Source: a virus. From it: a DNA stretch of 64,000 bases. The notes beneath the pieces are model-generated. The model searched no databases. It worked only from the letters and a program-made list of their open reading frames with translations, and had not been told where the DNA came from. The position numbers were made by a program, and so were the translations under genes. Location: positions 64,001-128,000 of IMG/VR virus record IMGVR_UViG_3300018080_000112, one strand, 5' to 3'. Shown here one piece after another: positions 2,509 through 61,399 of the stretch (position 1 is its first letter; every line of letters begins with the position of its first letter).

Positions 2509-2523
2509 GGTTAGGTCCTAACC
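2509..2523. repeat. dispersed palindrome (G)GTTAGGWCCTAAC(C); cores at 2510, 4059, 5535, 7789, 11845, 19256, 24557, 32414, 36298, 45758, 51496, 55952, 59547
   Basis: 13 exact copies of the 13-bp core found by reading. Confidence 0.9.
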
Positions 2524-2529
2524 TTGTTG

Positions 2530-2615
2530 TGTGGGATTGGAGCGGATTGGAGCGGAGTAGATCGGGTTGTGTGGGATTGATTAGGATCTGTTGGGATTGG
2601 AGCGGAGTGAATCGG
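2530..2615. repeat. short degenerate tandem repeats (GGATTGGAGC-like)
   Basis: Several gggattggagcgga variants just downstream of ardA. Confidence 0.6.
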
Positions 2616-2617
2616 AA

Positions 2618-3166
2618 CTATTCGGCGCGGTGCAAAAAGACGTGGACCTCATTCCCATCTTCGACAAAATCAACATCCCCATTGGTCTCGCGGTCGTCTG
2701 CATACTCTTCATAATCGAAGTACAGAGCCAGCTTGCGTTGTGCCTCTTTTGGAAGGGTGCTGAACTCCATCTCAAGAACTTCTTCCGCCCAATGACGCTT
2801 GGAGGGGTAGGTTCCAGCGTAGCGGTCAAGGTATGCTTCCGCTTCATCCAGGTAGTACACACCGCCGCCGTAGTTCAGCGCCGCCGATACTTTTTCAAGA
2901 CCGTGCTCTTGAATCATCTCAGCAAGGCGAACGGCGGAATCAAGACCCGAGTACTCACCTAGCCAGCCGCCGAAACCTTCATGATCGTGAATCGCGATTT
3001 CTTCGGCGAACTCCACCGGCGATCTTGCGAGCAAACCAGCGACCGCCTCTTGTGCAGAGTCAAGGTCATGTTCCGAGAGATCCAGCCAGCAACCATTGTG
3101 ACGACCGGCATTGTAAGCGGCGAGATCAGCAACGTAGATTTTCGGGGTGTCGGTGTTCATGTTCAT
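2618..3166 (-). CDS. ardA: ArdA anti-restriction protein (DNA mimic, type I R-M inhibitor)
   Basis: KIYVADLAAYNAG..G.WLDL and EEIAIHDHEGF motifs, YFDYEEYA, strongly acidic 182 aa. Confidence 0.88.
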   Translation of the reverse strand: MNMNTDTPKIYVADLAAYNAGRHNGCWLDLSEHDLDSAQEAVAGLLARSPVEFAEEIAIHDHEGFGGWLGEYSGLDSAVRLAEMIQEHGLEKVSAALNYGGGVYYLDEAEAYLDRYAGTYPSKRHWAEEVLEMEFSTLPKEAQRKLALYFDYEEYADDRETNGDVDFVEDGNEVHVFLHRAE

Positions 3167-4020: not shown

Positions 4021-4095
4021 CACCCCTTTATCTAGCTGATATCATTAGATCCACACTGGTTAGGTCCTAACCTTTTGGGTACAGCGACAAAACGC

Positions 4096-4303
4096 CCGTA
4101 TTATAAAGGGCATATCATAACGACCTACCTGTAAAATCACCGTATTATATGAGCCGTATCATAATGACCGTATTGTTCGGCGGCGACTCTCATACAGCGC
4201 CGTATGATACGACTGTTTTATCAGGAACTCCTTTATGATATGACGCTTGTCATACAGGACGTTTTACCAGATAGGTCCGTATAATATGAGCTTTATAATA
4301 CGG
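4096..4303. repeat. array of CCGTATNATA-like boxes
   Basis: Copies near 4096, 4110, 4140, 4154, 4168, 4200, 4231, 4277, 4291, plus inverted copies; often 14-bp spacing. Confidence 0.65.
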
Positions 4304-5312: not shown

Positions 5313-5653
5313 TGAGTGAGTTTCCTTTGTGTGTGGTTGTGATTTTGGTGGTGTAATCCTTGTGTTTGGTGGTGTCTTAGATCATAGCTTGTTTTGTAGT
5401 TTGTGGGCAAGCGGATAAGTAATTTTGTGGTAATTTTGTGGTGGTTGGAGTCGTGGTGTTGAGTATGTTCGGAGCGGGGCGGCTATGGTTAGAGGCGGGA
5501 CGCTGATGGGGTTAGGAGGTGGAACACCGATAGGGTTAGGACCTAACAATTTGGTGTTTCCCATCTAATCTTTCGGTGTTCCACCTCTATGATTTTAGGT
5601 GTTTCAAATGTGTTTTGTGTTCATTTTATCGATTTAGTGGCGTGGTGCTGTAT

Positions 5654-6271: not shown

Positions 6272-6664
6272 TTACTTTGTGGGTATTGTTTCTGTTGGGG
6301 GTGGTAGCGGGAACATTTCTTGTTGCGAGATAGCGGGTGCAGCTTGGATGTGATTCGGGGCTTGAGACGGGATGTTTGTGGGTATTTCAGGAAGGCTCAT
6401 TTTCTGTTCTTCGGGGTTCTTTGTGTAGTGATGTTTGAGTTCTTGTCTTCTCCAGGTCATCATTTGAGGGATCAGCATGATGGAGTGTTCGACCGCTTCG
6501 ATGGGTGCGTCAAGAGCGGACGCAATTTCATCTGGTGAGAATCCTCTTGTGATATAGGGTAGAAGTTGTTCGGGGTAGAGTTCTCTTTCGATGGGTTCTC
6601 CGTCGTGAGTGAATCCATCCCATACGGCGCAGAAGGGGCATTTCTTATCTACTAAAGGGGGCAT
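6272..6664 (-). CDS. hypothetical protein with CxxC and HTH-like segment (candidate regulator or small terminase)
   Basis: CPFC; RGFSPDEIASALDAPIEAVEHSI resembles an HTH; AGGAG RBS. Confidence 0.5.
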   Translation of the reverse strand: MPPLVDKKCPFCAVWDGFTHDGEPIERELYPEQLLPYITRGFSPDEIASALDAPIEAVEHSIMLIPQMMTWRRQELKHHYTKNPEEQKMSLPEIPTNIPSQAPNHIQAAPAISQQEMFPLPPPTETIPTK

Positions 6665-7335: not shown

Positions 7336-7671
7336 CTAGGGGTCGTCTTCACATTCCACGCCATAATGTACATAAGGGAGAAGCGCGGCTCTTGTGAACT
7401 GGTCAGAGTTGACCAGATCAAGCTGTATCTGGTGTTTGCACCGGGGGCATTCAAGGATTACTTGACTCAAGGGAAAGGGTTGACCGTGTTGTTTCTGGAA
7501 CGCTTTCACGTAGATTTGTTGCATGAATGTTCCGCAACAAAGGACACGGAACAGGGTGCGATTGACCATCGCTTTGGCGGTGACCTTTGGGGGTGTAGCA
7601 AGGAGTTTACTACCGTGGCGCGGTGGTTTCAGAATGGTCTCTTTCATGATCTTACCTATGATTTCAGACAA
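7336..7671 (-). CDS. small zinc-ribbon protein
   Basis: CCG...CPRC motifs. Confidence 0.5.
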   Translation of the reverse strand: MSEIIGKIMKETILKPPRHGSKLLATPPKVTAKAMVNRTLFRVLCCGTFMQQIYVKAFQKQHGQPFPLSQVILECPRCKHQIQLDLVNSDQFTRAALLPYVHYGVECEDDP

Positions 7672-7850
7672 AACGTTTGGGGGCGTTTGTCAAACGGGTT
7701 GTTACTTAGGAGTAAGCTAAGTAAGCTAAACCGATTCTAATAAAATCGGCATGTTATTGGAAAAAACAAGCTAAAAAGTAAGCTAAAAGTTAGGACCTAA
7801 CCAATTTTAGTTTACTCTGTGAGCTTATCAGAATGAGCTTGCGAGTCTCC

Positions 7851-11761: not shown

Positions 11762-11969
11762 AGCTCTTTCTCTCCTTCCGGAGATCGTAGCACATCTCTT
11801 TTGCGGGGTAACAATTTTTGTTGTTTTAGGGTCCAAACGTGATTGTTAGGACCTAACCTTTGGATGGCAATTGCGCCAAATAATCTTTGTCGCATGGAAA
11901 AAACCTCCATTTCTATCCCTTGGTGTGTAAAAGATTAGCGAAACAAAAGAAGTGATGGGAGTTTGTAAC

Positions 11970-13979
11970 CTACACACCAAAACAGCAAGATGATCCGTTC
12001 ACATCTCGTTCAACCACTATACCGTGATTAAATCGCTGATTCAACTGTTCATTGTGGGTGACTACAATTGTGGTGTTGATCCCTTTTCTCTTTGAGACAC
12101 AATGAAGCAACTCCATCATGTTCTCAACTCCCGCCTCATCGACGTTTTCGAACACTTCGTCCAGTAGACTCAAGCCGAGACCTTGACCACGCGCCAAGCT
12201 GAGATCTTGCAACGCCAGCGCAAGGGGAACATCCAGCCGCCGCTGTTCGCCACTACTACAGCTTTCATAACGCACGTTCTCACCGGTCTTTGTCTGCACT
12301 ATGATGCTGATCTTTTCCCGCTTCTCACCCTTGGCGGTCTCGCTCTGAATGGACAACTGCGCCACAAGCTCGCCGCTGGTCATAATGTCGGCATACTCGA
12401 ACAGTCTCTCGTTCACCTCTGGAAGTAGATTTTCCAGGAGAAAAGAGCGGATTCCTTTGGTCCCGAACACATTCACAAGCACGTTCAGCTTTTTGATCTC
12501 CTGGTCAACTGCGTCTCTCTCTTTGCGGGTCTCTTCTTCCTTCCGAACGTGCTGTTCAAGCTCTTTTCTCTCGCTCGCCAATAGCTCTTCAAAGGGGGAT
12601 ATTTCTTCTCGTGTTTGCTGTACACGCTCTTTCAGCGCATCAATTTCGTGTTGTTTATGCTCCTGTTTAAAAGCCCATTGGTCATAGTTGATCTTTCCCT
12701 TGTACAGGGTGTCATGTTGCTGATCCAGTTCCCAATAACGCTTGGAGAAGCGCTCTTTCTCCGCCTCTATTTCCCTCTCAATATTGCGCTTATTCACCGG
12801 GAGTGTTTGACAAACGGTGTACTGTTTGGATTGTTGGTCAACCAAAGAATCTATTTGTTCGTTTAGTTCCGTAGAACCGGGAAAAACAGCATCATCCACC
12901 GTTTGTCCACAAGTAGGACACGAACCGCTATCAATGAGCTTTGACCGGCGATTCACTTCCTTCTCTAGCCCACTTCGTTCCGCTGTTATTCGAGCGTACT
13001 CTTTATCAGCGTCGCGGATCTGTTTTTCCAACGGGGGGATCTTCTCTTGTAGCTCTTTGATTGTCTCCTGATGGTTATCATTCTCCGCCGCCAATTGTTT
13101 CTTCGCTGCATCGATTTGCTCTTGTGTCACACACGGCGGCTCCTTCTCCGTCGTTCTTTCCAGGTCTCGGATCTGGTTGCCAAGCGCTTCAAACTTGGCG
13201 CTTCTGTCACGGGTCCACTGGTCTTGTCGTTGTACCAGGTCAATCAACCGGCTCCTCTTTTGGTCGATAATCTCCAATTGTTGGATTCGCTTGTTTGCCA
13301 GTACCCTGAGTTCTTCCTTCTCCTCTTTGCGCCGATCCTTGGCGATCTTTTCCGCCTTCGTGTAGAGATGAATCTGCAAAATCTCTTCCAGTAGCTGTTT
13401 TTTTGCGGTGTCAGATAGCCCGGAAAAGCACGGCATTCCGCCTTTACCGAACAAGGTCACTTGACGGAACATGTCACGAGACAAGCCGATCAGCTTGATA
13501 ATCTTCCGCTGTGTTTCGTCCTTGTCTGCGCCGCGTAGATCTTGAGCCACTAGGGTGGGTTTATCCATCAGCGCAATCGGCTCCTCTGTGAGTTCTGGCG
13601 CGTCCGGGTCATTGTACAGCCACAAGAACAGTTCGTTCTTGAGCTTTGGATGGGAGTGGAAGCGTTCAACCTGGTAGATCTCTTTTGTCTGGGAGTTGAC
13701 AAAGGAGACAATCGAGAATGTCCCTTTTGTCTTCTCGCCAGCTTGCTCCAGGATTGACGCTCGTGTGGGTATTTCCTTCGAAAGGATGTTCCGAAGCATC
13801 TTTCCATAGAGCGCGAAATAAAGCGCCTCAAACAACGCGGATTTGCCAGCACCGTTATTGTTCTGACTGGTAGATCGGTGGTTGATACCGTACAAGCTTA
13901 TCAGCCCAAGATCTAACAGGTCCAATTGCATCTTTATGAAGCACAAGAAATTCTGTGCAAGGACACGAATAATGTACAT
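11970..13979 (-). CDS. sbcC: SbcC/Rad50 (T4 gp46-like) ATPase
   Basis: NGAGKS Walker A, coiled coils with CPTCG zinc hook, SSGE signature, LDE Walker B, VTH. Confidence 0.92.
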   Translation of the reverse strand: MYIIRVLAQNFLCFIKMQLDLLDLGLISLYGINHRSTSQNNNGAGKSALFEALYFALYGKMLRNILSKEIPTRASILEQAGEKTKGTFSIVSFVNSQTKEIYQVERFHSHPKLKNELFLWLYNDPDAPELTEEPIALMDKPTLVAQDLRGADKDETQRKIIKLIGLSRDMFRQVTLFGKGGMPCFSGLSDTAKKQLLEEILQIHLYTKAEKIAKDRRKEEKEELRVLANKRIQQLEIIDQKRSRLIDLVQRQDQWTRDRSAKFEALGNQIRDLERTTEKEPPCVTQEQIDAAKKQLAAENDNHQETIKELQEKIPPLEKQIRDADKEYARITAERSGLEKEVNRRSKLIDSGSCPTCGQTVDDAVFPGSTELNEQIDSLVDQQSKQYTVCQTLPVNKRNIEREIEAEKERFSKRYWELDQQHDTLYKGKINYDQWAFKQEHKQHEIDALKERVQQTREEISPFEELLASERKELEQHVRKEEETRKERDAVDQEIKKLNVLVNVFGTKGIRSFLLENLLPEVNERLFEYADIMTSGELVAQLSIQSETAKGEKREKISIIVQTKTGENVRYESCSSGEQRRLDVPLALALQDLSLARGQGLGLSLLDEVFENVDEAGVENMMELLHCVSKRKGINTTIVVTHNEQLNQRFNHGIVVERDVNGSSCCFGV

Positions 13980-19161: not shown

Positions 19162-19647
19162 AACAACTCCTTTTGTTGTTTCAAGACTGTTAACTGATGC
19201 TCGTTTCTGGGGTGCAAGGCTGTTGAAGATTGTTGTCTCCTGACACCCGGAAAAGGTTAGGACCTAACTATCAGCACGCGAGCATGAAAACAAACAGCGT
19301 TACCTATTAGAGACACATTTTTATCCGAAAACGAACCGTTTTCCAGTGAAATAAAACCACCTTTTGACAACTACGACCTGAAACCCCAACAAAATCAAGG
19401 AAAAAGGTCCGCTCACAAAAGAGTAACCAGAAGCACCCCATAAAAAGCACCAAGAAATCAAACACAAATGGTTGCATTTCTACATTTTTCTTGTCTCTAT
19501 TAAAGAAAGCATCTAAAATGTAAGACCACCTCGCACAGTGGGCGGTAGCGTCTACCGAACAGACGACAGACCGAATACAGACCGATGATAGGGGATACAA
19601 GATAGGACAGTTTTTTTCGCCTCAAAACCATAGGAGAAGAACGTTCA

Positions 19648-21528
19648 ATGACAACACACACCAACCTTTCAACCCAAACCATGGCGCGGCTCATCCATCA
19701 CATGAAGTACGCCAAATACCTACCAGACCAGCAAAGAAGGGAAGAGTACAAAGAAACCGTTAGCCGGAACTTGATGATGCATGTCAAGAAATTTCCCCGG
19801 CTCGCACAAGAGATCTCAGAGGCTTACAAGTACGTTTTTGACCGAAAAGTACTCCCCGCGATGCGATCAATGCAGTTTGCAGGGGAAGCAATCGAGCGCA
19901 ACAACTGCAGGCTGTACAACTGTTCTTTTACCCACATCGACCATCCAGACGTGTTTCAAGAGATTATGTTCCTCTTGTTGTCTGGTTGCGGCGTTGGGTA
20001 CAGCGTGCAACAACAACACGTGGCGAAGCTTCCAAAGATACAAAAGCCAGACGAACCCTTCACGTACAAAGTACCTGATTCAATCGAGGGATGGTCCCTT
20101 GCTGTGGGGAAGTTGATCGATGCTTTTTTGCGGGGTAAGCGCTTTCCAATCTTCGATTTTAGCGGAGTCAGACCAGCCGGATCACCAATCGTTACCAGCG
20201 GGGGGATCGCGCCTGGTCCTGGTCCTTTAAGCACTGCGCTTGTTGAGATACAGAACATACTGGTGAACAAGGCTCCTGGTTCGAAATTATCAACACTGGA
20301 GTGTCACGACATTCTTTGTCACCTTGCGCACGCCGTTCTCTCTGGCGGTGTCCGTCGTTCCTCTTATATCGCCCTTTTCAGCATTGACGACAAAGAGATG
20401 TTGGAGTGTAAGAGCGGCGAATGGTGGAAAGACAACCTCCAGCGCTCGCTTGCAAACAACTCCGCCGTGGTCTTGCGCAGTGAACTCCACGACCGAAGAG
20501 ATCAAGTCAATGCAATCTGGGATCTCTTGGAAAACTCCCTAAGCGGCGAACCGAACATTTTCTTGACGAATGATCTTGATTGGGGTTGCAACCCTTGTGG
20601 TGAAATTGGCGGACCTAGCAACTTCTTTTGCAACCTGGATGAGATCAACGCGAGCAACGTCAAGAACCAGACAGACCTCGACCAGCGAGCGCTGATTGCT
20701 TCAAGGCTGGCGACCATTCAAGGCACATACACAGACTTCCCCTTCCTTCGCCCCATCTGGAAAGAAAGAGCCGAGCAAGCGGGTCTTATTGGCGTGGGAA
20801 TGACCGGTATTTCTCGCGGGAACATTTTGGGTCTCAACCTCAAACGCGCCGCAAAAATTGTGCTGGCTGAAAATAAGCGTCTGGCGAAGCTTCTCGGCAT
20901 TACAAAAGCGGAACGGTCCACAACCATTAAGCCATCTGGAACGTCCTCTCTTGCCCTCTCAAATGGTCTTGTCGTGTCTTCTGGCATCCACCCCTACCAC
21001 AGTCCCTTCTGGAAACGACGGATCACCGTCACACACACCGAACCAGTCTACCAATATTTGATGAATGAACACCCCTGGCTTGTTGAGCCGTCCGCGTATC
21101 GACCAGAGAGGGAATCTGTGATTACTCTCCCGCAAGCCGCGCCAGATGGTGCAATCATGCGTGATGAGGGAGCCATGGCTCTTTTAGAGCGCGTCAAGTA
21201 CTTCTATGACAACTGGATCTCCCCCGGTCACGTCACCGGAAAGAACACAAACAACATAAGCTGTACCGTATCTGTCAAAAAACATGAATGGCAAATGGTT
21301 CGGGATTGGTGGTGGAACAACACAGACTCTTTTGTGTCTCTCACCTTCATGAACTATGACGGCGGTGTCTACAAGCAAATGCCAATGGAAGAATGCAGCG
21401 AGAAAGAGTACAAGCGACTCGTCAAACAACTCCGACCCATGGATTTAAGAAGTGTGGTAGAGGAAAAGGATACAACGACAAGATCTCAAACTGTGGCTTG
21501 TGCTGGCGGTGCTTGCGAGCTAGTCTAA
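19648..21528 (+). CDS. nrdJ: class II (adenosylcobalamin-dependent) ribonucleotide reductase
   Basis: YNCSF, GCGVG, GGVRRS, NPCGEI, CNL, TTIKPSGT, C-terminal ACAGGACEL; no small-subunit gene in the window. Confidence 0.9.
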   Translation: MTTHTNLSTQTMARLIHHMKYAKYLPDQQRREEYKETVSRNLMMHVKKFPRLAQEISEAYKYVFDRKVLPAMRSMQFAGEAIERNNCRLYNCSFTHIDHPDVFQEIMFLLLSGCGVGYSVQQQHVAKLPKIQKPDEPFTYKVPDSIEGWSLAVGKLIDAFLRGKRFPIFDFSGVRPAGSPIVTSGGIAPGPGPLSTALVEIQNILVNKAPGSKLSTLECHDILCHLAHAVLSGGVRRSSYIALFSIDDKEMLECKSGEWWKDNLQRSLANNSAVVLRSELHDRRDQVNAIWDLLENSLSGEPNIFLTNDLDWGCNPCGEIGGPSNFFCNLDEINASNVKNQTDLDQRALIASRLATIQGTYTDFPFLRPIWKERAEQAGLIGVGMTGISRGNILGLNLKRAAKIVLAENKRLAKLLGITKAERSTTIKPSGTSSLALSNGLVVSSGIHPYHSPFWKRRITVTHTEPVYQYLMNEHPWLVEPSAYRPERESVITLPQAAPDGAIMRDEGAMALLERVKYFYDNWISPGHVTGKNTNNISCTVSVKKHEWQMVRDWWWNNTDSFVSLTFMNYDGGVYKQMPMEECSEKEYKRLVKQLRPMDLRSVVEEKDTTTRSQTVACAGGACELV

Positions 21529-24500
21529 CCCTTCTTACTTCCGAATCTCCCCTTCATATACTCTTCATACGGAACAGAACCAACTTGCTCTTCTATCTCT
21601 TGTCTCTTTGCTGATTCTATCGCCGCCTTGTGGGATGCCTTTGACCGCTCCACCGGACTCATAGACTCTTCCGCCGCAATCTGTTCTCTCCTCTTTGCCT
21701 GATACTCTTCGACCTCTTTTTGTGTAATATCAGAGAGACTCTTCAACGTGATACCAGTCGATACACTAGCGGGAATCCCAATACCTGTTCCGCTCAAAAT
21801 AGCGCTCAAACCTGATAGGAATCCCTCTATATCACCTGTCCACGTCGTTTTCCCCCGCAGTGGTGAGAGAATACCATCCAGGAAAACACGCAAACGAGAG
21901 GTTGGCTCAAGATCCGCACTCGGTAGCCGTTCCCTCACTTTCGTCATGATCTGTTCGTAAATGTCTGGCTCTTCCTCTGGCTCTTCCCGTTCAGAGAAAC
22001 CTTCTCCCTTCGTTGTCTCTGTCGGTGGTGGAAACGTACCTTCTGAGACAAACGCGCCACCCGCTGCGCTGAGTTCTTGACTGGCTGTAGAAAACGGCAC
22101 TTCTTCTTTCACCATGCTTGTGCTCGTTCGCTCTACTTGTATCCGACAATCAATCCCAAATTCACTCATAAACATTCGAGGTAGCTCACCAGACACCACA
22201 AAGTGACTCACAATCTTAAAGGACCGCCTTGAATAGGTGTTCGCACAAGTAAACCCAAGGCGAAGTTTCTGGGGTGCTACTTCCTCAACAATAGCGTATG
22301 TAAGAGCGTTCCCAAGCTGTTCATTTCTGATCTGAACACGAGAAACAATGTTGCTCCAGTCATAACCCCACATCGTTGCTGTTTGACTCTCCAGATGAAC
22401 CCACGTCGGCGGTACTTGCAGCGTTGTAGGGTCCGGCTCCTCGATTGTCTCCGCCGGTACTACAACAACGGGAACAGGCTCCTTTGTACCCGTCTTTTTG
22501 ATCACAGACTCCCGCAACAAAAACGCATTAGTTGAACACGCCTCCAACCGTGGTGAGTTTTCCAGTTCAGGACACGCCTGAACATCCTTGATGATATCGT
22601 CACAGATCTCCACCGTTCGCTCTTGACTCACCGCCTGGATGCACTGCGCCGCATTTAAGAGACACTCTTGCTGTTGGATGATGGTATCGTTGAGACGGTG
22701 CATTCGAGCCGCTTCAATGTAACAAGCATACGCCATCACCTGGTTACACTCGTCACGGTACTTCTTACCAAAATTCGACAGATGGATTCCCATCATAAAC
22801 GGGTCAAGCTGAGCGCGTAACTGGTCTGTAATCACTTTCGCCTTTAGGTCAGACACAAGACCGGAAACGGATTGCTCTTCTCGGATATATGGTTTCTTGA
22901 GACCCCAAAGGTCATTCTCCAGCGTCTTGAGAACATCTTGAACCACAAACGACTCCGTCTCTTGTCGTTCTCGCAACTTCTTTGTCCAGTCCTCCAGCGG
23001 TTCACTCCAGGCTTGTTCTTCCTGGTCTTGTTCAAGCTGAATGATCCAATCCCGCAACCGCACCCGTTCCTGCAATAGGTCACGAAAACACTGCGAAACG
23101 CCCGTAAAAGCTTGCCCTATGAACACCCGCTGAAGAGAGATGATACCAGCCCCTACAAGCTTCACCTCCATCGAATGTTCTGCACCCGATGATTTCACCG
23201 TCACAGACTGCGCCGTTACTTGTTCCAGTCCCGAGAGGATCTTTGCTGTTCTCGCTTCTGTCTTTGATAGTTTCTTTGTGTCCAGCGGCACAGCTTTCTC
23301 AGACCAGATCGGCGGGACCTCTTTCGGGATCTCTTTCGGCTCTTCTTTCTTTAGTGGTTCCTTAGCTAACTCCGCTCTGTTTCGGTCCCTTATCAGCCGC
23401 TTGAACGCCTCCAATGTTTTCGCATCTTTGGGAACATTAGAGAACAACACCCGAAAAATCTCGGTTTCATCTGGCGTCATTTCAACGTAGCCGTCTTCTG
23501 TTGGGAAAGAGACCGAGAAAGGTTTTGGCTCCTCCACTACAGGACTCGCTTCGAAGGGGATCTTCCCCACTCCGCCGCATGTCTTACATTGTTCCTCGCC
23601 AAACAAAGAATAACCTCTCCCTTGACAGTCGTGACAAGGAACCAGCGGCTCTTCTTTGACTGGTTCTCTTTCCTTCCAGCCCTCGCCATCACAAGAGTTA
23701 CAATCGATCCCCATATCATCTGTACCGACTCCGTCACACCAGGAACAAAGCACGACGTTTGGTTTTGTAGGTATGACACCATAGCCGCGACACCGCGAAC
23801 ATGTGATGTGTACGCCTACTTCGGTTGTTTCCCCGTTACCCGCGCAAATAGGACACTCTTTGGTCAACCCTTCTTCTGGTTCTTCTTCCACGTAATGCCA
23901 GCCCATTCCGTCACAATCTGGGCACTTATAAGGACTCCCCGCATAACTTGTTTCACCCGTCCCCTTGCACCGAACACACCACTCTGTTTCTCTTTTTGTT
24001 ATCTCTGGCTCTTCTTTTGCTGCAAAAGGAGAGAAGACAGTTCCTTCTCCCTGGCAAGAAGGACAAACACCAGTAACAGCGCCGCGCTTCTCCACGACTC
24101 TACCAAACCCTTGGCAGTACTCGCACTCTTCCACATACCACCACCCCAAACCGCCACATGTTGAACACTCTTCTGTGTATGTTTTTGCGCTCTGTACGTG
24201 ACCAATCCCATCACAATCAGGACACTCTTTCTTCCGCTTTCCGTACTTCTCTGCATCCACAGAGCCAGTTCCCAAGCAACCATTACAATCAATCTCGTGA
24301 CCAGAGACGGACAAAACACCCGTACCACCACAATCTGGACAATCCTTCTGTGCTTTCTTCTCTGGTTCTCTCGCCTTTACCTTTTTGGGGTACTTCACTT
24401 CCTTGGTGCGCGTCCCTTTCCCCAAACACGGGACACAAAAGAGCGAACTATCATGCGCCGCTCTTCCAGTCCCTTTACAAGCGGAACACTCCACGGATTC

Positions 24501-24542
24501 AAAAACAGGCTGTTTTCTCTTTTCTATTCCTTTCCACGCCAT
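21525..24542 (-). CDS. 1005-aa protein with 16 DnaJ-type CxxCxGxG zinc-finger repeats
   Basis: 16 CxxCxGxG motifs counted in the first ~330 aa. Confidence 0.8.
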   Translation of the reverse strand: MAWKGIEKRKQPVFESVECSACKGTGRAAHDSSLFCVPCLGKGTRTKEVKYPKKVKAREPEKKAQKDCPDCGGTGVLSVSGHEIDCNGCLGTGSVDAEKYGKRKKECPDCDGIGHVQSAKTYTEECSTCGGLGWWYVEECEYCQGFGRVVEKRGAVTGVCPSCQGEGTVFSPFAAKEEPEITKRETEWCVRCKGTGETSYAGSPYKCPDCDGMGWHYVEEEPEEGLTKECPICAGNGETTEVGVHITCSRCRGYGVIPTKPNVVLCSWCDGVGTDDMGIDCNSCDGEGWKEREPVKEEPLVPCHDCQGRGYSLFGEEQCKTCGGVGKIPFEASPVVEEPKPFSVSFPTEDGYVEMTPDETEIFRVLFSNVPKDAKTLEAFKRLIRDRNRAELAKEPLKKEEPKEIPKEVPPIWSEKAVPLDTKKLSKTEARTAKILSGLEQVTAQSVTVKSSGAEHSMEVKLVGAGIISLQRVFIGQAFTGVSQCFRDLLQERVRLRDWIIQLEQDQEEQAWSEPLEDWTKKLRERQETESFVVQDVLKTLENDLWGLKKPYIREEQSVSGLVSDLKAKVITDQLRAQLDPFMMGIHLSNFGKKYRDECNQVMAYACYIEAARMHRLNDTIIQQQECLLNAAQCIQAVSQERTVEICDDIIKDVQACPELENSPRLEACSTNAFLLRESVIKKTGTKEPVPVVVVPAETIEEPDPTTLQVPPTWVHLESQTATMWGYDWSNIVSRVQIRNEQLGNALTYAIVEEVAPQKLRLGFTCANTYSRRSFKIVSHFVVSGELPRMFMSEFGIDCRIQVERTSTSMVKEEVPFSTASQELSAAGGAFVSEGTFPPPTETTKGEGFSEREEPEEEPDIYEQIMTKVRERLPSADLEPTSRLRVFLDGILSPLRGKTTWTGDIEGFLSGLSAILSGTGIGIPASVSTGITLKSLSDITQKEVEEYQAKRREQIAAEESMSPVERSKASHKAAIESAKRQEIEEQVGSVPYEEYMKGRFGSKKG

Positions 24543-39300: not shown

Positions 39301-39782
39301 CAATCGTATTTAGGGTTCCAGAACGCCCACAGACAGTCTGTTCGTTCATAGATGGGTGCCAGAGCCTCCGAGACCTTTTGCGGGTCAAGACAGGACTCCC
39401 CCGTTCGATGTCGAACAGGAATATACACATTCCGCAACTGGTCATGCGCCACATTCGCCAGCGGACCCAAATCCTTCCGGTAAGAGAACGAATAGCCAAT
39501 GATGCGATGTCTCAGTTTGCCAAGACCTTCTGTTTCTGTATCAGCCGAGATTGCTTTCGCGACTCGCAGATCTTCACAAACTTGGAGAAAAGCATCCCAT
39601 GTGTTGATCAACTCGAACTGTTCATCCGCCTCCAATATACCAGGAAATTCTTTCTCCTTTTGTAGGTCCACCTCAGAGGGGAGAACAACATCATCATCAT
39701 CATAAACGCGGATGTTCTCGCCATTCAGGTCCCTCACAAACGTCTGTTGTTTAGAGAACAAACCTAGCTGTTGTTTCGCCAT
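36312..39782 (-). CDS. polA: family A DNA polymerase precursor containing an intein
   Basis: Exo DTETEG; motif A DLSQIEVR, motif B R...KQLNFSIVYG, motif C IHDE; GRL|SS site split by an intein. Confidence 0.93.
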   Translation of the reverse strand: MAKQQLGLFSKQQTFVRDLNGENIRVYDDDDVVLPSEVDLQKEKEFPGILEADEQFELINTWDAFLQVCEDLRVAKAISADTETEGLGKLRHRIIGYSFSYRKDLGPLANVAHDQLRNVYIPVRHRTGESCLDPQKVSEALAPIYERTDCLWAFWNPKYDWHMGANDGLIAPHPTLDGMILRRLIYADKLAGLKIVAAEDIDPEAATAEKLLEIYVTVLCRMNRWKKPSDRDPVGRAYYEYITTSIMAAYAARDTFFTWIATAHYLARVAAVPALLDLAITEHILLDPLYEMEREGLYVSRERVDANSLELDGLMKEMEEKIFEMIQRDINLGSGDQVAALFKEMKIPIIKATEATKKLPPSQQIPSLDGDSLMRLNKKGYEIAGHIHKWRKARDLKSKYLNVLPRIAEKDDCIHASFRQVGTESGRLCVAGDTVLETNMGKFRISDLDLTKNQNVSILTHKGRYRPIVNKYYKGQEEMYKVVLDNGSFIKCTAGHRFLTPKGWRRLDELAEGREVCTPSNYSGTFRGKGSPKGIRRRKLCSDNERRNYRCRSGSAIRRKPSRHQHFKEVLQRKVRRFDQVIKAAKLSPFDDGKSARKKGTTSGSNSKGGVRKISKRWLVSFGIGAKVRYNRVVCSPEHTISRVEETYGSAPLQVAGYGSGLLGTPGSFDTRVAGSNKKLLRQTSRVFQVVVSGIYQGKRTALVHQRVGKWSPLSKRTERGSTRPYLLVNKSRRIVSFTRSFGEKHSTRTSVYFVSKLHGRFLSSVCKFACGSRWRLPSQRQENKGTRRKERKDYTGEGVSSFACDRQRSSDLIGGCFRPDRGHYIQRIESIGIEDVWDIAVEEDHSYIAHGFINHNSSGGPNMQNFPSRGRLAHLVKGIFIIPPELQKDWVWVFADLSQIEVRILTHYCQEPSLVEGYAHGLDIHAATAEAMFGDRWDRADAKERKTLRSIGKQLNFSIVYGVGPKGLSDILFKGDGFEPGIDASEDECKDFIERYMTARPMVISWIEKTRRDARRTGVILNAQGRRREFYELLDRDTPMKVIKGIERELTNFVIQGSAADMYKKGLALSYARFKREGLRIKCINTIHDEIQYLVHKEDLERSAQIVKVAFEEDAAPWCSTPIVMDFEYVAGGDMAWSDKKDLTPEIIETLAKAA
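37212..38498 (-). mobile_element. intein (429 aa) in polA
   Basis: Starts CVAGDT, block B CTAGHRF, block F VWDIAV, ends HN followed by Ser; removal restores TESGRL-SSGGPNMQN. Confidence 0.92.
37280..38260 (-). CDS. DUF559/Vsr-like endonuclease with HTH segments, overprinted in the +1 frame inside the intein
   Basis: ERQF...VDFF....LLVEVDGDYH...RD..KE....GF..LR; HTH-like GITDAEVVRRYGVS and GWSLSELARKFDT; GGAGG 7 nt before ATG. Confidence 0.85.
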   Translation of the reverse strand: MNSQKDEKFVPRVITLEHSVERGRRKVFDEESFVLIMNEGITDAEVVRRYGVSRHVINTSKKYYKEKYGDLIKSSKRLNYRRSMMGNQRGKKEQPAVVIPKEELEKSLRDGWSLSELARKFDTTEWFVRQNIQFHELKKPTGVLPYKLQDTDLVYLERLEVLTPGLLEATKNYYDKPHEFFKLLYLAFIKVNEQLWFIKELANGHRYRREQNEVPRDHICWSTNRGELFLSLGLLERNIAHERQFILYRNYMVDFFLPSANLLVEVDGDYHRKDKKTKERDAKKEKIIQEKGFLLLRVTDKEVLTSLGDVLDQIEVIISKELSQSE

Positions 39783-39783
39783 C

Positions 39784-40341
39784 TCACTCCCCTTCACTAT
39801 CTGTTTTCAAGTAGCCAAACCACACATAAAATCCGTCACCCAAGTACTCAATATCCTCTCTCTTTCGCATCTTCCGCTTCAGTAGTATATACTCAGGATC
39901 TTTGTTCACAGTGTAATTACCACCCGTCATACACTCCAAGATCGGACCTAGATCATACACATGCATGATTCGACCAGCAAGGCGCAAGATCCTACTGCAA
40001 ATGTACATATAATCATTGGGTCTCGTCGGACCACGAGAAGACTCTTCCCATGCCCACCGGATCATTTTCGCATCTGTGAATTGAAGGAGACAGGCTTGAT
40101 TCAGATTACAGCGGTCGGTACAAAGAAAGTTACCAGCATCATACGAGTTACCAAAGCAACTTGGTGGATCAATCTCTCCTTTGTCTTGTAGTTCATGGAC
40201 AACACAACGAGCGCACAACATCTTCTGGAGACTAAAACGACCAATGTGCGCCTCTTCCTCCAACACAACAAGACCACACTCTTGACAAACAAGCTGACTA
40301 GGTTGCTTGTCCTTTTTCTTTCGTGTTCTCTTCGCACTCAT
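39784..40341 (-). CDS. Cys-rich hypothetical protein
   Basis: CxxC pairs and a C-X11-C-X3-C-X5-C cluster. Confidence 0.65.
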   Translation of the reverse strand: MSAKRTRKKKDKQPSQLVCQECGLVVLEEEAHIGRFSLQKMLCARCVVHELQDKGEIDPPSCFGNSYDAGNFLCTDRCNLNQACLLQFTDAKMIRWAWEESSRGPTRPNDYMYICSRILRLAGRIMHVYDLGPILECMTGGNYTVNKDPEYILLKRKMRKREDIEYLGDGFYVWFGYLKTDSEGE

Positions 40342-41051
40342 TCATCATCATCATCCAACTCTAGGCGTGTCGCAATTTTTGCGATTGCTGTTCGAACAGA
40401 GCGCCATCCACAACCCACATACTCTTGGATGGTATCACGACCGCACACCTCGAAACCGACAGCACCGGCATTGATTGTCTTGCTTCGCCGGTTCTTGATA
40501 TCTGTTTGTGCTTCCCGCTCATTGGCGAAATTAAGAAGAGCTTGTGGAGGACGAACCAGCGACCGAATCACCCATTTGTAAATCTTACCCTTCTGGGTAT
40601 TGGGGAACTTGTCAGCTTCATCATACGCCTTCTGTAAGAGGTCCCGCGCTACAAGCCGTTCTTCCTCCGATTGTGGGTTCATTTGGAGAGGCAACCCGTT
40701 TCTCTTGCACGAGAAATTCCGCAAGTGCATCACTTCATGTAACGTTTTGGTGTCCTCTTTCTCGCTGTGTATGCCGCGATCAAGCGAAACATGAACGTAT
40801 GAGTTATCGCCACGAATCAGATTCAAAGAGCGCCGCCGCAGTGACGCCAGCATATACTTCTCTGGATTGTCTGCGCTCTCATATCCATCCGACCTTGCGA
40901 CCTCCCAAGCGATAATCAGCAACTCCTGATAAAGGTCTTCTTGGTCGTGGTCCCGGCAAGAACAGGACAAACCATAAGCTAACTTTTTCAAGAATGGTTG
41001 GTATTTGGTAGTGAATGCATGGAATGATTGTTCGCCCTTATTGCGGGTCAT
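40338..41051 (-). CDS. RNA polymerase sigma70-family (ECF-like) factor
   Basis: Region-2-like KYQPFLKKLAY...DQEDLYQELLIIAWE...YMLASLRRRSLNLIR; divergent HTH-like C-terminus. Confidence 0.65.
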   Translation of the reverse strand: MTRNKGEQSFHAFTTKYQPFLKKLAYGLSCSCRDHDQEDLYQELLIIAWEVARSDGYESADNPEKYMLASLRRRSLNLIRGDNSYVHVSLDRGIHSEKEDTKTLHEVMHLRNFSCKRNGLPLQMNPQSEEERLVARDLLQKAYDEADKFPNTQKGKIYKWVIRSLVRPPQALLNFANEREAQTDIKNRRSKTINAGAVGFEVCGRDTIQEYVGCGWRSVRTAIAKIATRLELDDDDE

Positions 41052-41091
41052 CTCTTCTTCCTCCAGCACCAGTATTCCTGGTGCAAAACAA

Positions 41092-45741: not shown

Positions 45742-45758
45742 TGAACTTCTCCAAAAGG

Positions 45759-46844
45759 TTAGGTCCTAACCGTACTGTATCCCGAAATCCGAACGTTGAT
45801 CAAGAGAGCAACTTCCTCTTTACTCTCTACATACACCGATTCATCGATGTAGTTACGAGTCTTCTCTGTTCCAATCTCATCCGGGTCTCCACCAGAGAGA
45901 CAAGCAATCTTCACAGAGTCGAAACGTCCTAGCAAATAACTTGCGGCGGTCAAAAGGGGAGGTCTCCCATAACCACCCGTCTTCTTGCCCCCGAACCGAC
46001 CTTTCGCCTCCAACCGCTTCTTTACAGGGTTGGGGACCTTCCAGCTATCCGGGTCATAACACAAGACCACCTTGCGAACACCGTACTCTTTCAACAAATT
46101 AATCTGAGCTTGGCTGATCTTGTTTCCGAATGTAGCCACGGCATCTTCACCCGTTTTCAGCGCAGAAAAGACACCTTCGCAGATGATAACCTCATCGAAA
46201 GAAGACGCCTTGTCAATGTTGAACAAACAATTGGCTCCTGAATAGCCAGCCGGGGTCAAGTAGCGGAGTTGGTGTGTTCCACTTGTGTCTCTTGCTTGCC
46301 AGAATACCAGCTTGTTACGTTGCCAAACAGGGAGAATAAGGCGACCGGAGTACTTTCCGAATACACAACCACCAAATTTCATCTCCAGCATGGTATTCCA
46401 GTTTATACCGCGATTAAGAGCATATCGGTTCACCGTGGGTATCCGGGGGTCTCCTAGTGGGATGAAGTTTTCTGGTAATTCCAACGCTTTCTTGCTCACC
46501 TGAATTCGACCGTGACTCGTGCGTACAAAGGTTTGAGTACCGTCCATCAGCGCAAGCTGTTTCTTAACGTAATCCTCAAAGGAATCATCCCCTGGTATCG
46601 CGTTGTATTCCCCCATCACCTTGAACAACTTCATTCCCCGAACACCCGTCAGATATTGCAACAACTCCTCTCTGTCGGGTGACCACTGACAACGATGACA
46701 GTAGTACAGATCGTCCGTTACGGTAATCCACAACTTTTCATATCCGCCACAGTACGGACAATCAATCTTGATTTGCTTATCATCGACCGTAACCGCCTTG
46801 TAACCGATCTTTCTTTCATGGAGGAACCGCAACATGTCAAACAT
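45759..46844 (-). CDS. DNA primase (zinc finger plus TOPRIM)
   Basis: CPYC...CHRC, GRLILP, ICEGVFSA, YDPD. Confidence 0.88.
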   Translation of the reverse strand: MFDMLRFLHERKIGYKAVTVDDKQIKIDCPYCGGYEKLWITVTDDLYYCHRCQWSPDREELLQYLTGVRGMKLFKVMGEYNAIPGDDSFEDYVKKQLALMDGTQTFVRTSHGRIQVSKKALELPENFIPLGDPRIPTVNRYALNRGINWNTMLEMKFGGCVFGKYSGRLILPVWQRNKLVFWQARDTSGTHQLRYLTPAGYSGANCLFNIDKASSFDEVIICEGVFSALKTGEDAVATFGNKISQAQINLLKEYGVRKVVLCYDPDSWKVPNPVKKRLEAKGRFGGKKTGGYGRPPLLTAASYLLGRFDSVKIACLSGGDPDEIGTEKTRNYIDESVYVESKEEVALLINVRISGYSTVRT

Positions 46845-50408: not shown

Positions 50409-51125
50409 TCATGTCTGGTACATATTGCGCCAGACTTCCCTTGTTTTCTTGAACTCCAATGAGAACGCTTCACTATCATCCGGGTCACCACAAAGAGACC
50501 ACACCTCTTCTTCGCTTCCCAGATTCTTAATCATTTGCTTGAGTAGCTTCCCGTCATACTCCAGCAAAAACTCTCGGTCACTCTCCGTGGGATCGATGCG
50601 CTTGTCACAAGCACCAGGATGAACAGAAAACGCAGGTTCATCCCCTTCCTCCTTCATCTTCTTCCACCACGTATAACGACGCACCGCCCACATGCTTGCA
50701 AGCTGGCTGAAGGTAGGAGCCTCTTGTTTATGGTCATTGATCCAGTAGAACTGTGCCTCCAGATAGTCTTGAAAGGTCGCGTCAACCATCTCAGCTTGCG
50801 CCACAGCACGACAAAGACAACCCATGATCGATTTGTTTGTTTCCATCTTTCGGCGCATATTCATCTCGTAGGGTCTGCGATAATAGCGAGCGTACAACTT
50901 CGCATAAATCGAACCCATCTGATCAGCCTTCTGGTACTTCACCCGGCTGGCATCATCAAGGGGCAAAAGACGCTTGCCACAGACCTGGCGAACCATTTCC
51001 TCTCTGTCCTGAGAACGACCGCGCCGCGCCTTCTTACTGCGCCGATAATGCTTCTCCTGGTCTCGCTTGACAACCACCATTGGTTCAGGAGCCTGTCGCG
51101 GTGGTTTGCCGACATTACTCATCAT
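50409..51125 (-). CDS. hypothetical protein (basic N-terminus)
   Basis: Start MMSNVGKP overlaps the upstream stop. Confidence 0.6.
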   Translation of the reverse strand: MMSNVGKPPRQAPEPMVVVKRDQEKHYRRSKKARRGRSQDREEMVRQVCGKRLLPLDDASRVKYQKADQMGSIYAKLYARYYRRPYEMNMRRKMETNKSIMGCLCRAVAQAEMVDATFQDYLEAQFYWINDHKQEAPTFSQLASMWAVRRYTWWKKMKEEGDEPAFSVHPGACDKRIDPTESDREFLLEYDGKLLKQMIKNLGSEEEVWSLCGDPDDSEAFSLEFKKTREVWRNMYQT

Positions 51126-51531
51126 TCGCCGCCGCCTCTTTCTCTTTGTCAGTAGACAGCGCCTCTCGGTCATACAGTTCCTCTTGTAGCGGAACCATAA
51201 AGTGAGGCATCGCCAGCAAAAAGAACTCCACATCATCAATCTGGATAAAGAACCCGTACATGGAACAACGAAACTGTTCGACACCGGCGGTCTCATACCA
51301 GTACGGGTCCTCTTTCAAGCGCTTCATACCGCGAAGAAGACCAGACTGCGAGACCATCATCTTCGCCACAAACGCCGCCATTCCGAACTCCCCAAGAGCG
51401 TCTGCGCCGGACCTCATAATCTCTTTGACGCCTTCTTCTGTCTCCAGCTTCCGTTTTAGCTCTTCCTCTGTCATGGTCGAATCCTTCAACTCGATGTTAG
51501 GACCTAACCCTTCTTTTTCAGCCATCACCAT
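51115..51531 (-). CDS. hypothetical protein
   Basis: Operon position; contains a palindrome copy encoding LGPN. Confidence 0.6.
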   Translation of the reverse strand: MVMAEKEGLGPNIELKDSTMTEEELKRKLETEEGVKEIMRSGADALGEFGMAAFVAKMMVSQSGLLRGMKRLKEDPYWYETAGVEQFRCSMYGFFIQIDDVEFFLLAMPHFMVPLQEELYDREALSTDKEKEAAANDE

Positions 51532-55918: not shown

Positions 55919-55979
55919 GATTTCCTCCTTGCAGACCTACCAAAAAGAAAGGTTAGGTCCTAACAATCAACCGAAAAGA

Positions 55980-58817: not shown

Positions 58818-58854
58818 AACTGATTCTCCAACCGTCAAAAATATTTAAAAGATC

Positions 58855-59532
58855 TCACTGATCTTTCGAGTTCGTTACCATTCGATGAAGGTCTTCAACA
58901 AAGGGCAAGTGATTCTCCAATGTACCACCTTCTATCTGGTCGATCCACCACTGGAGTTCTTTTTCCACAACATCCTTGAAAGGGAACATCCAATAATACC
59001 AGCGACCCACAAATTGCTTTGTGATCCACACTGGCGGTTTCATCTTCTTTTCTGTTCCTTCGTTGTAGCGCCAATGGCTGATCGCCATTGTCATCCCGAA
59101 AGCTCGCATCTCGTACTTCTTTCGCCAGTACGCCGGGAGAGGCAACGCACACAACAAAAACAGAAGGGAGAACAACCAGCCTGCACTTCCCCAGATGGCT
59201 CCTAGCGCCAACAGACTCAACACAGCAAGGATCTGTGGAAAGAGATACAGAATTGCAAAGAGAGGACCCAACCGGCGCGAATCGTCCGCATGAATCATCT
59301 CATGGGGTAACACCTCCACAACCGTGTCATCTTCTTCGATCATCGACTTCGGAAAATAGACGGTGGACCCGATTGTTGTGATGTATCCGGTCATGAACTC
59401 CGGGTTGAAAAAGAGAATCTTGTTGATGATTTTCATCAAAAGAGACTCTTCCTTCACCTTGACGTGAACCCCACGAAAACTCGCGTACTCCTCTATCTTC
59501 TCTCGCAACTCTGATATATTGCTCATCTTCAT
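58855..59532 (-). CDS. membrane-anchored zincin-like metallopeptidase
   Basis: TTIGSTVY, HEMIH, TM hairpin, EMRA. Confidence 0.65.
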   Translation of the reverse strand: MKMSNISELREKIEEYASFRGVHVKVKEESLLMKIINKILFFNPEFMTGYITTIGSTVYFPKSMIEEDDTVVEVLPHEMIHADDSRRLGPLFAILYLFPQILAVLSLLALGAIWGSAGWLFSLLFLLCALPLPAYWRKKYEMRAFGMTMAISHWRYNEGTEKKMKPPVWITKQFVGRWYYWMFPFKDVVEKELQWWIDQIEGGTLENHLPFVEDLHRMVTNSKDQ

Positions 59533-59554
59533 TCCTTTTGTTGTCGGTTAGGAC

Positions 59555-61399
59555 CTAACCTTTCTCGCCATCGCTGTTCATGAAATCGAAAATAGAGGTT
59601 TGACCCTTTCCCTCTTTCTTGATCTTAGTCTCGATCATTTTTCGAGCTTTATCCAGCGATCCAAGCTGATCAAACTCAATTTGTTGTTTCGCCGCCTCGA
59701 CTCGCTCTGTCGCAATCTCAATATAATCAGCGTTACACTCCACACCGAGGAATCTGAATCCTTCCATCAACGCAGCAACACCTGTGGTTCCACTTCCTGT
59801 AAATGGGTCTAATACAACCCCCTCCGGCGGCGTCACCAAACGAACCAGATAGCGCATAAGCTTGATCGGTTTGACTGTGGGGTGGATATTGGTTCTCTTT
59901 GTCTCTCCGCGTTGATACGGGGTGTCTATCGGTGTGCTTCGACCATTGGTGACCTTTTTGCCATTTCGTTCCTCTAGCCCCTCCTCTTTCTCAGATCGGG
60001 ACGCTTTCGGAATGTAGATGAACGGAGGAGCCGCTTCCAGGTTTAGAAAAAACCGCGCCGCTGTCCCCTCATCCTCATAACCTGTTCTCTCCACTGGTTT
60101 TGTGACCTTGCCACCCACATAACCATCGCTTTGCCAGCCAGCTTGACCGCCTTCGTGTCCTTTACTACTCCCGCTTTGTTCCCCGAGAAGACGAACAGGA
60201 CACTGTGGAACACACACATAGTCCTTCACTTCCTCTTTGCCGTCGTTGCTTACTTGACCATCCGTGTACTGAACAGAGCCAATCCCGAACATAGAGGCGT
60301 CACCGTCTCCCTTTGACGCCTTACCACTCCCGTTTGAAGGCTTGACTCTCTTTGTTCCTTTGCAGATGCAGTCCGGGTGATGCGTCAGCAACAAGTGACT
60401 AGGCCAGCGACCCTTCAATTCTCCCTCTGTAGTCTGTCTATATGTTTCCTCAGAGGTTCTAACTTGCCAGCTTCCTTCGTCCTCGTACTTGATCACCGTC
60501 TTTGATTTGCGCCGCGCCGCCGCTGTGGATTGTTCTCCCTGAAAAGAGATCCGACAAGCGTCAATATTCACCGCGCCTGTTCCGAACTGGAGAACAGTTT
60601 CAGCAACCGACCCGATCAACGGTTTGCGAGCCAACCACCAATCTTCTACTGATGGCTTGAGCGCGAGACCATATCCTTCATACGCTTGTGCTTCTGGTGT
60701 CGCCGGTCTCGTTATAAACGCTTCCACTTCATCTTCTTGTGGTTCTGCACGTCCGTAGTTGTCGCCCTTCATATCAAAGTGACGCCCGTCAAGATTCGGA
60801 TTTGAGCCTACCACTTCTCGAAATGTTCCCGCTTCGCGTTCCAGGCGTTCACGAAGCTCATCATGGACCGAAAGAAGTTTCTTGACCGCTTCTTTGTCTC
60901 CTTCTTTCTTTGCGTCTTGCACGGCTCGCTTGGCGTCATAAAGAGCCTGTTTCTCTTCCCCGTGTTCCTTGAGCCACAGATGGAACATGTGTTTGTCTAT
61001 CGCCTTCGACACATCCATGTTTTTCGGGAATCCTGAACCCACGACGTGCGCAATTCGGTCCCTGATCTCAAAACCAGCAGACTCGATAGCCCACGCAGTC
61101 CAATGGCTTGTTCGCGGAATAGCCCAACACAACATGTGTCCACCGGGCTTGAGAACACGCAAGCAAGCGGTCATCACGTCCGTCATCCACGAGACCCACG
61201 CATCCCGACCACCCTTGTCCGTATCCCAATCTTTGTTCATGAATGCGATACCAGACGGCTACGGAGGGTCAGTCACGATTGCATCGCATGTGTTGTCCGG
61301 CAATTCCCGCAACACATCCAGGCAATCTCCCAGACGAAGCTGATATGACTCTTCGCCTAGAATTGACTGACCCAATTCTCCTTTTATTTGTTTACCCAC
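59555..61399 (-). pseudogene. beta-class N6A/N4C DNA methyltransferase with an in-frame TAG (61259-61261) in the DPP motif
   Basis: GTG start with GGGGAG RBS; GDCL...DAIVTDPP*PSGIAFMNKDWD...GSGFPK...HPTVKP...VLDPFTGSGTTG. Confidence 0.75.

Follow-up and report, generated by a model that had tools for sequence, protein, structure and literature searches.

Evenly spaced 13-bp palindromes in an uncultured large phage and its relatives: possible loading sites for a partner-less ParB/KorB-type protein

The analysed window consisted of bases 64001–128000 (64,000 nucleotides) of the IMG/VR virus record IMGVR_UViG_3300018080_000112 (143,941 bp; hereafter G000), which belongs to an uncultured phage; positions are given in window coordinates unless marked "genome". 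Gene calling based on open reading frames (ORFs) revealed 196 genes in the record, 184 of them on the − strand, with a coding density of 0.89. The window encodes a GpA-type large terminase, an intein-bearing family A DNA polymerase, a recombination set (SbcC/SbcD-like proteins, RecA, a gp32-like protein and a UvsY-like protein), a replication set (a Toprim primase and a DnaB-like helicase), CobT-like and AAA proteins, a class II ribonucleotide reductase, an N6/N4 methylase and a sigma-70 region-2 protein. Dispersed among these genes, 13 exact copies of the 13-bp palindrome GTTAGGWCCTAAC could be recovered, which is the full number claimed in an earlier note on this DNA, compared with none in 100 dinucleotide-preserving shuffles. 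The palindrome copies are as follows.

2510–2522, unstranded: copy GTTAGGTCCTAAC, in a long gene-poor stretch
4059–4071, unstranded: in a non-coding stretch of about 1 kb, with YGTATCATAA repeats 40–180 nt off
5535–5547, unstranded: overlaps with a weak 60-amino-acid (aa) ORF call only
7789–7801, unstranded: 49 nt past the stop of the large terminase gene
11845–11857, unstranded: after the SbcC-like gene (11970–13979, − strand)
19256–19268, unstranded: RTGTGTCTCT promoter-like motif 51 nt away
24557–24569, unstranded: TAG stop of ORF 24565–25392 (−); next gene start 14 nt on
32414–32426, unstranded: contains the stop of recA (32422–33564, −)
36298–36310, unstranded: 1 nt past the stop of polA (36312–39797)
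45758–45770, unstranded: TAA stop of the Toprim primase gene (45759–46844, −)
51496–51508, unstranded: in frame in ORF 51115–51531 (encoding LGPN), or intergenic if the next ATG is the start
55952–55964, unstranded: 15 nt past the stop of a gene for a 945-aa protein; next start 33 nt on
59547–59559, unstranded: contains the stop of the N6/N4 DNA methylase gene (59555–61240, −)

When up to two mismatches were allowed, no extra copy appeared in the window. Counting across the whole record, which the earlier note had proposed as a check, yielded 28 exact copies together with one 1-mismatch and one 2-mismatch copy. Despite the coding density, 26–28 of the 28 sites were located in or at the edge of gene junctions. 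An upstream stop codon lies no more than 21 nt away at 16 of the 28 sites, at least five of these 16 supplying the stop themselves, and the next start codon follows 6–41 nt downstream at 13–15 copies. The word contains TAG and TAA and thus carries stops in two of the three frames on both strands, from which the overlap with stop codons and the intergenic placement largely follow. All four ORFs whose stops had been attributed to a site (the ORF at 24565, recA, primase and methylase) end inside one, and the site said to nearly touch the polA stop is separated from it by 1 nt. The copy at 51496 had been described as lying inside a coding sequence; it is in frame in ORF 51115–51531, but it could also be intergenic, as an ATG 21 nt after the site is accompanied by a GAAGGA ribosome-binding site. 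Spacing is tightest between 2.5 and 7.8 kb, as had been noticed before, with intervals of 1549, 1476 and 2254 bp.

A terminase alignment was built and used to scan viral and metagenome contigs, followed by a de novo palindrome count; the contigs compared did not include those of the closest terminase relatives (82–95% identity). Every compared lineage with at least 49% terminase identity carried a dispersed palindrome of its own.

G000 and G001, 144 kb and 17.4 kb, reference phage: GTTAGGWCCTAAC, 28 and 4 copies
G012, 161 kb, terminase identity 58%: CTTTAGA-N-TCTAAAG, 52 copies
G011, 23 kb, terminase identity 58%: TTTAGASTCTAAA, 7 copies
G013, 105 kb, terminase identity 51%: GTT(C/T)AGT-N-ACT(G/A)AAC, 28 copies
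L226, 15 kb, terminase identity 49%: TATTAG-NTT-CTAATA, 4 copies

The core TTAG-N3-CTAA is common to the palindromes of all five lineages. The centre base is G in 25, C in 22, A in 3 and T in 2 copies of G012, while in G013, whose palindrome family corresponds to the motif RTTYAGYNRCTRAAY, it is G or C in 25 and A or T in 3. In relatives with terminase identity of 39% or less, nothing comparable could be found within 10 kb of the terminase gene. A constant core with lineage-specific arms, the copies having changed in concert, is the sequence signature that a co-evolving trans-acting reader would leave. The earlier note had suggested following the motif into relatives, and this revealed lineage-specific versions with a common core at positions that mostly differ between lineages. 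The G012 lineage is represented by two strains, L223 and L224, in which an orthologous site (near 21340 and 21321, respectively) differs in its centre base (G versus C) and has identical arms.

On the + strand, the centre base of the G000 sites is A at 16 and T at 12, with 184 of the 196 genes on the − strand. The two forms are one and the same site on duplex DNA, whereas on RNA they would give two different loops, and the mixture therefore argues for a site read on duplex DNA. Conservation in G000 has a sharp edge at 13 bp, beyond which a weak bias remains at ±7 to ±9; the flanks are complementary at ±7 in 6 and at ±8 in 7 of the 28 sites, which is below the shuffle expectation. No excess of G-T over A-C pairs could be seen on either strand in G000. 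Hairpin extension and covariation were likewise absent from G000 and G013; in G012 the copies often extend into longer AT-rich palindromes, and covariation was marginal (P 0.02–0.05 at single positions). The G013 half-sites TTCAGT and TTTAGT combine into 14 CC, 9 mixed and 2 TT sites, where independence predicts 13.7, 9.6 and 1.7, and a C-A mismatch would occur in the mid-stem of 5 sites. Hairpins of the G000 sites are weak, 11 of 28 having −4 kcal/mol or weaker on both strands. A simple terminator scan flagged two copies in the window, the site at 4059 on the + (non-coding) strand and the site at 32414 on the − strand, the latter solely as part of a larger fold, and terminator-like and sigma-70-like sites overall occurred at shuffle level. 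With weak stems, no covariation and these two flagged window copies, an intrinsic (Rho-independent) terminator is not supported, in agreement with the earlier note. Because the centre is unoriented, the flanks do not covary, the half-sites are independent and the hairpins are weak, the palindrome is probably a docking site on double-stranded DNA, which a two-fold symmetric protein would read.

The distribution of the sites was evaluated in G000, G012 and G013 by the coefficient of variation (CV) of their intervals.

G000: CV 0.46, mean interval 4.8 kb, range 1.5–9.5 kb
G012: CV 0.53, mean interval 3.0 kb, range 57 bp–7.3 kb
G013: CV 0.48, mean interval 3.6 kb, range 1.5–7.7 kb

Random positions or randomly chosen gene junctions served as the null (5000 simulations per genome) and gave CVs of 0.94–0.98 under both placements. 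The observed CV was reached by none of the 5000 simulations in each genome, and the largest gap was matched in at most 0.4%. The lattice is real and strongly non-random, and its spacing property is both unusual and reproducible. The junction after the terminase gene carries a site in all lineages (7789 in the window; G011, G012 and G013 among the relatives), and the one that follows polA carries a site in G000 and G012. Within the syntenic replication and terminase modules, no other junction has a site in more than one lineage; elsewhere the junctions differ and the spacing is kept. Sites of G013 also occur inside genes of 3–6 kb. In G012, 35 of 131 tandem, 3 of 19 convergent and 6 of 18 divergent junctions carry a site, so that no preference for convergent or divergent junctions could be observed. 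Since the spacing is even in three lineages while the positions turn over, selection seems to act on the density of sites, and hence on coverage of the chromosome, and not on the control of particular genes. Conservation of density and even spacing rather than of position points to a chromosome-wide function instead of gene-by-gene regulation. The earlier note had imagined a dimeric protein that marks the whole chromosome; the symmetry tests, the even spacing and the turnover of positions all favour this part of the idea, and a reader encoded in G000 was not found.

Based on these properties, the 13-bp palindromes would be duplex-DNA docking sites for a two-fold symmetric (dimeric), lineage-specific protein, kept at about one per 3–5 kb so that the protein could reach the whole phage chromosome and not particular promoters, with the placement at junctions coming mainly from the stop codons inside the word. 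The likeliest reader may be a partner-less ParB/KorB-type protein, which would load at each site and spread or slide on the neighbouring DNA, and its purpose might be to silence or insulate transcription, or to compact or shield the genome. The chances of this proposal as a whole, with docking sites, even coverage and a ParB/KorB-type protein as the likeliest reader, appear evenly balanced. That the reader is a ParB/KorB-type clamp, loaded at the sites and spreading from them, is possible but somewhat short of an even chance; this would cover the even spacing, the promoter-distant sites, the exactness of the copies, the likeness of their sequence to the KorB operator and the gene found in sister lineages. 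More tentative still is the widest form of the idea, in which the chromosomes of a clade of large uncultured phages would be tiled at even intervals with sites where a partner-less ParB/KorB-type clamp loads. The arms of the sites would co-evolve with the reader, and during infection one viral protein could coat, silence, compact or shield an entire genome. Protein binding at the sites, a ParB-type reader in G000 and the effect of binding are what we infer from the sequences. Of the analogies offered by the earlier note, that with parS and Noc sites provided the best functional lead, with a ParB-type gene in G012 and G013 and no ParB-family reader in G000, and a recombination or processing site gained no support.

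The closest system in the proposed mechanism is, by analogy, KorB with its OB operators. The OB copies lie both near and far from promoters, at about one per 5 kb. KorB is a ParB-family clamp dependent on cytidine triphosphate (CTP), with 12 OB operators on the IncP-1 plasmid RK2 (PMC13768133, PMC11790492), and OB, TTTAGC(G/C)GCTAAA, is a 13-bp odd palindrome with G or C at its centre (PMC13768133). It contains the TTAG-N3-CTAA core; compared with the G012 site, it has the same length and the same centre and agrees at 11 of 13 positions. A further likeness is that ParB_N and HTH_ParB domains (HTH, helix-turn-helix) occur in a protein of G012 and G013 whose gene has the site in its own leader. 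The differences are that no ParB or KorB domain was found in the G000 record, that no IncC-type (ParA) partner was found, KorA not having been looked for, that RK2 is a plasmid whereas the present genomes belong to large, apparently lytic phages, and that these carry 28–52 sites at even spacing.

The ParB-type gene belongs to a four-gene module that is common to G012 and G013 and absent from G000. The module contains a divergent pair of genes with the palindrome in the intergenic region between them. The first encodes a 226–236-aa protein with an N-terminal HTH, and the second a protein of 360–450 aa with ParB_N and HTH_ParB domains, named "ParB-like partition protein" by PHROGs. The site is located 212 nt upstream of the ParB-type gene in G012 and 98 nt upstream in G013. 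A whole-library profile search placed the protein in a large ParB family (13,593 matches at E ≤ 0.001). Its closer relatives keep the motifs GFRR..A and ENxQR, which we take to correspond to the CTP-binding boxes of ParB. The loci of ParB relatives in viral contigs comprised G013 and one weak match without a lattice. A ParA-type ATPase (PF13614) gave no match in G000, G001, G012 or G013, while 14 of 14 control genomes were matched; because no such ATPase was found, the ParB-type protein of G012 and G013 is classed from its sequence context as partner-less. The G012 protein (92532–93884; L102:1153–2505, + strand) has a lysine/alanine-rich, histone-H1-like N-terminal tail of about 110 aa, and its C-terminal tail is acidic; the G013 ortholog has neither tail.

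Several observations weigh against a ParB-type reader. No such protein was found in G000 or G001 using the Pfam ParB_N and KorB models. A 2-sequence ParB profile had no match among six-frame ORFs, profiles built from 20, 60 and 150 ParB sequences had no match in G000, and the best probability in hhalign comparisons of ParB with every called G000 protein was 2.5%. The neighbouring HTH protein in G012 and G013 is an equally placed candidate reader. Two HTH proteins are encoded in G000 itself: one of 70 aa and XRE/Cro type (genome 24039–24251, −), whose gene has a site 119 nt upstream, and one of 393 aa that contains three HTH domains (genome 55389–56570, −). The resemblance of the sites to OB could also be a coincidence.

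The state of the G000 record bears on this negative result. CheckV estimated its completeness at 89%, and end repeats were absent. The major head protein (phrog_752) is absent from G000 and G001 and present in both G012 and G013. Because G012 and G013 have this protein, the G000 record is a fragment without at least the head module, and the estimate of 89% probably overstates the share of the genome present. Absence of ParB from a record that lacks the major head protein, and with it a part of the genome, is not decisive. G001 (L047, 17.4 kb) and G000 have the palindrome word and a promoter-like 23-mer in common and no protein in common, and G001 may come from the missing portion of a G000-like phage genome.

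Within the 144 kb of G000, the recognisable sequence-specific binders were the 70-aa XRE/Cro-type protein, the 393-aa triple-HTH protein and the sigma-like protein. Two further small proteins, conserved in every lineage of the clade and encoded right behind the terminase-proximal site, were considered as readers.

6272–6664, − strand: protein B, 130 aa; weak sigma-region-4/LuxR-like HTH; in every clade lineage
7336–7671, − strand: protein A, 111 aa; CC...CxxC zinc-ribbon motif; in every lineage; first gene after the terminase-proximal site

Protein B would be a weak candidate because its putative recognition helix is acidic, and protein A would be a weak candidate as well. Neither could be used as a marker of the lattice, as both are present in L230, where no site occurs in 8.4 kb.

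Two promoter-like motif classes could be recognised in G000. The 23-mer AGTCAGAAAAAAGTCTTGCCCTC has 14 copies (genome 1043–119411, − strand), always on the transcribed strand and mostly 38–51 nt upstream of a start codon, and is present once in G001; window copies lie near 497, 2206, 3601, 43223, 44655 and 55400. From its sequence context it looks like a phage-specific promoter class. The motif RTGTGTCTCT(A) has 19 copies, always on the − strand and often with TTGACA 4 nt upstream, and occurs in the window near 6903, 16417, 19313, 32266, 35799, 49168 and 55289. It is perhaps a second promoter-like class, for which the putative reader would be the phage sigma-like protein (40338–41069). A motif of either class lies within 250 nt of 7 of the 28 palindromes, about 6 being expected, and a link between the two was rejected for want of enrichment. 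Where they co-occur, the palindrome comes first, beside the upstream stop. Three other connections were rejected as well. Only 4 of the 28 sites adjoin an array of TCAAGGCTGTTGA boxes; restriction or methylation through the central GGWCC (AvaII-type) is not indicated, as GGWCC is not depleted (141 versus 126 expected); and half-sites outside the palindromes are not significantly depleted (18 versus 21 expected, maximal-order Markov model).

The sites might instead be classical operators, at which a small regulator encoded by the phage (for example the 70-aa XRE/Cro-type protein or the 393-aa triple-HTH protein) switches transcription units or blocks elongating RNA polymerase at gene ends, as a symmetric counterpart of stoperators or of the MrpR–SPBRE system of SPbeta. 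The site 119 nt upstream of the XRE gene start has a promoter-like motif in between, six long intergenic regions show the order stop, palindrome, promoter-like motif and ribosome-binding site, and the upstream stop within 21 nt at 16 of the 28 sites would also suit this explanation. Genome-wide repressor sites are known from phages, namely SPBRE bound by MrpR (PMC10516654) and stoperators (PMC9283540). However, 21 of the 28 sites have no promoter-like motif nearby, and such motifs are no commoner beside the sites than beside random junctions; between lineages the positions change and the density is kept; even spacing would be unexpected, L5 stoperators having a CV of 0.82–0.85; and searches of G012 and G013 revealed no ortholog of either HTH protein, though the core of the site is conserved. 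Operators or roadblocks of a small HTH regulator rank second, after the ParB/KorB clamp, and are regarded as doubtful. An RNA-level hairpin at gene 3′ ends, with a stem of 5–7 bp and a 3-nt loop, acting in termination, mRNA stabilisation or as a processing mark, would agree with the location of the sites at gene ends, the many overlapping stop codons, the 5′ flanks rich in A and the 3′ flanks rich in T, and the extension of many G012 copies into hairpins of 9–15 bp (−8 to −24 kcal/mol). It is nevertheless very unlikely in view of the weak G000 stems, the two window copies flagged as terminators, the lack of covariation and of a strand bias in G-T versus A-C pairs, the mid-stem C-A mismatch in five G013 sites and a centre base that is unoriented despite one-way transcription. 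Moreover, four of the five lineages (all but L226, with its NTT spacer) keep perfect symmetry across the bases that would form the loop, which selection on RNA does not require, and divergent junctions also carry sites (6 of 18 in G012).

A host protein, either a global regulator or a nucleoid protein, could read the sites if each phage lineage matched the version of its own host. The lack of an identifiable reader gene in the G000 record would be explained in this way, and phages do carry sites of host regulators, for example CtrA boxes (PMC9437464). In species genomes, however, one 14-mer form of the palindrome gave, among the matches listed, single scattered matches in unrelated taxa, by which a generic host repeat was also rejected. 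Closely related lineages differ in arms and centre and retain the TTAG core, for which a co-evolving phage protein is the better fit, and even spacing with zero tolerance of mismatches is unusual for the sites of a regulon; a host reader is quite improbable. The palindromes might also be selfish or mutational elements, similar to repetitive extragenic palindromes (REP) or miniature inverted-repeat transposable elements (MITE), that spread in intergenic DNA without function for the phage. They are intergenic, palindromic and present in many copies, and G000 carries the IS605-type genes TnpB and IscB. Against this, the conserved unit stops sharply at 13 bp, 2 near-variants stand against 28 exact copies, the spacing is even in three lineages, and the core is conserved across lineages with terminases 49–58% identical to that of G000; such an origin is extremely improbable.

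Among published phage repeats, the closest parallel in form is the dyad repeat of the Cluster O mycobacteriophages. These phages, including Corndog, have more than 30 copies per genome of the 17-bp dyad repeat TGTTCGGNNNCCGAACA (PMC4351075), for which the authors suggest a dimeric binding protein and doubt a role in transcription (PMC4351075). Likenesses to the present sites include the invariant inverted arms, the 3-bp spacer, the lack of orientation to transcription and the location of most copies away from promoters; Corndog also encodes a ParB-like protein, gp90, as G012 and G013 do. On the other hand, the 34 copies of Corndog are uneven (CV 1.07) and crowded at one end, one third of them lie inside genes, and sequence, host and phage lineage are unrelated to those of G000. 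Stoperators, in work on L5, are reportedly oriented with transcription. The stoperators of Cluster A mycobacteriophages, read by L5 gp71 (PMC9283540, PMC6550527), resemble the present sites in their 13-bp length, dozens of copies and location in short intergenic spaces, and one phage protein reads them, acting away from promoters. They are asymmetric and read by a monomer (PMC9283540). They also belong to temperate phages and, in L5, are unevenly spaced (CV 0.82–0.85), whereas the G000 sites are symmetric and unoriented. The stoperator analogy of the earlier note was accordingly abandoned, as stoperators are asymmetric, oriented and uneven, and the sites described here are symmetric, unoriented and even. 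SPBRE, a repeated intergenic element of the Bacillus prophage SPbeta (about 134 kb), is bound by MrpR as revealed by ChAP-seq (PMC10516654). Like the present sites, it is conserved, repeated and intergenic in a large phage, but it has about 10 copies, all in promoter regions, and MrpR has a tyrosine-recombinase-like fold and a role in the maintenance of lysogeny (PMC10516654).

A survey of 2025 described orphan ParB-fold proteins as widespread in phages and did not mention palindromes (PMC12704722). No published description of such an evenly spaced palindrome lattice was found in the searchable literature. Dispersed invariant dyad repeats are known from a few cultured phages, and only some of these repeats have been explained. 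The arms that each lineage has placed on the TTAG-N3-CTAA core represent a natural specificity series for finding and testing the reader, and the sister lineages provide a concrete candidate in an orphan ParB-type protein with a site that resembles the KorB operator. If the proposal is true, viruses would address all their DNA at once by means of ParB-type clamps or of a dimeric protein that works analogously, and orthogonal pairs of protein and 13–15-bp site would be supplied. Clamp tiling, if true, would mean that a virus applies the ParB-CTPase switch to its whole genome, which is undescribed in the searchable literature.

The phage is distant from cultured phages, with a terminase identity of at most about 29%. 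A search for near-identical phage DNA yielded nothing, PHROGs provided no names for the large G000 proteins, and no RNA polymerase was detected among the G000 proteins scanned. On the − strand of the window, 21525–24542 encodes a 1005-aa protein with five DnaJ-type CXXCXGXG zinc-finger repeats, which has an Anti-TRAP-like match and a weak PHROG match to Q-like antiterminators. The repeat YGTATCATAA occurs in two clusters, with 8 copies at genome 60732–60912, just left of the window, and 3 copies at 4112–4241. Both clusters are directly beside palindrome copies in gene-poor DNA, and their sequences resemble iterons, so that they could mark a replication origin.

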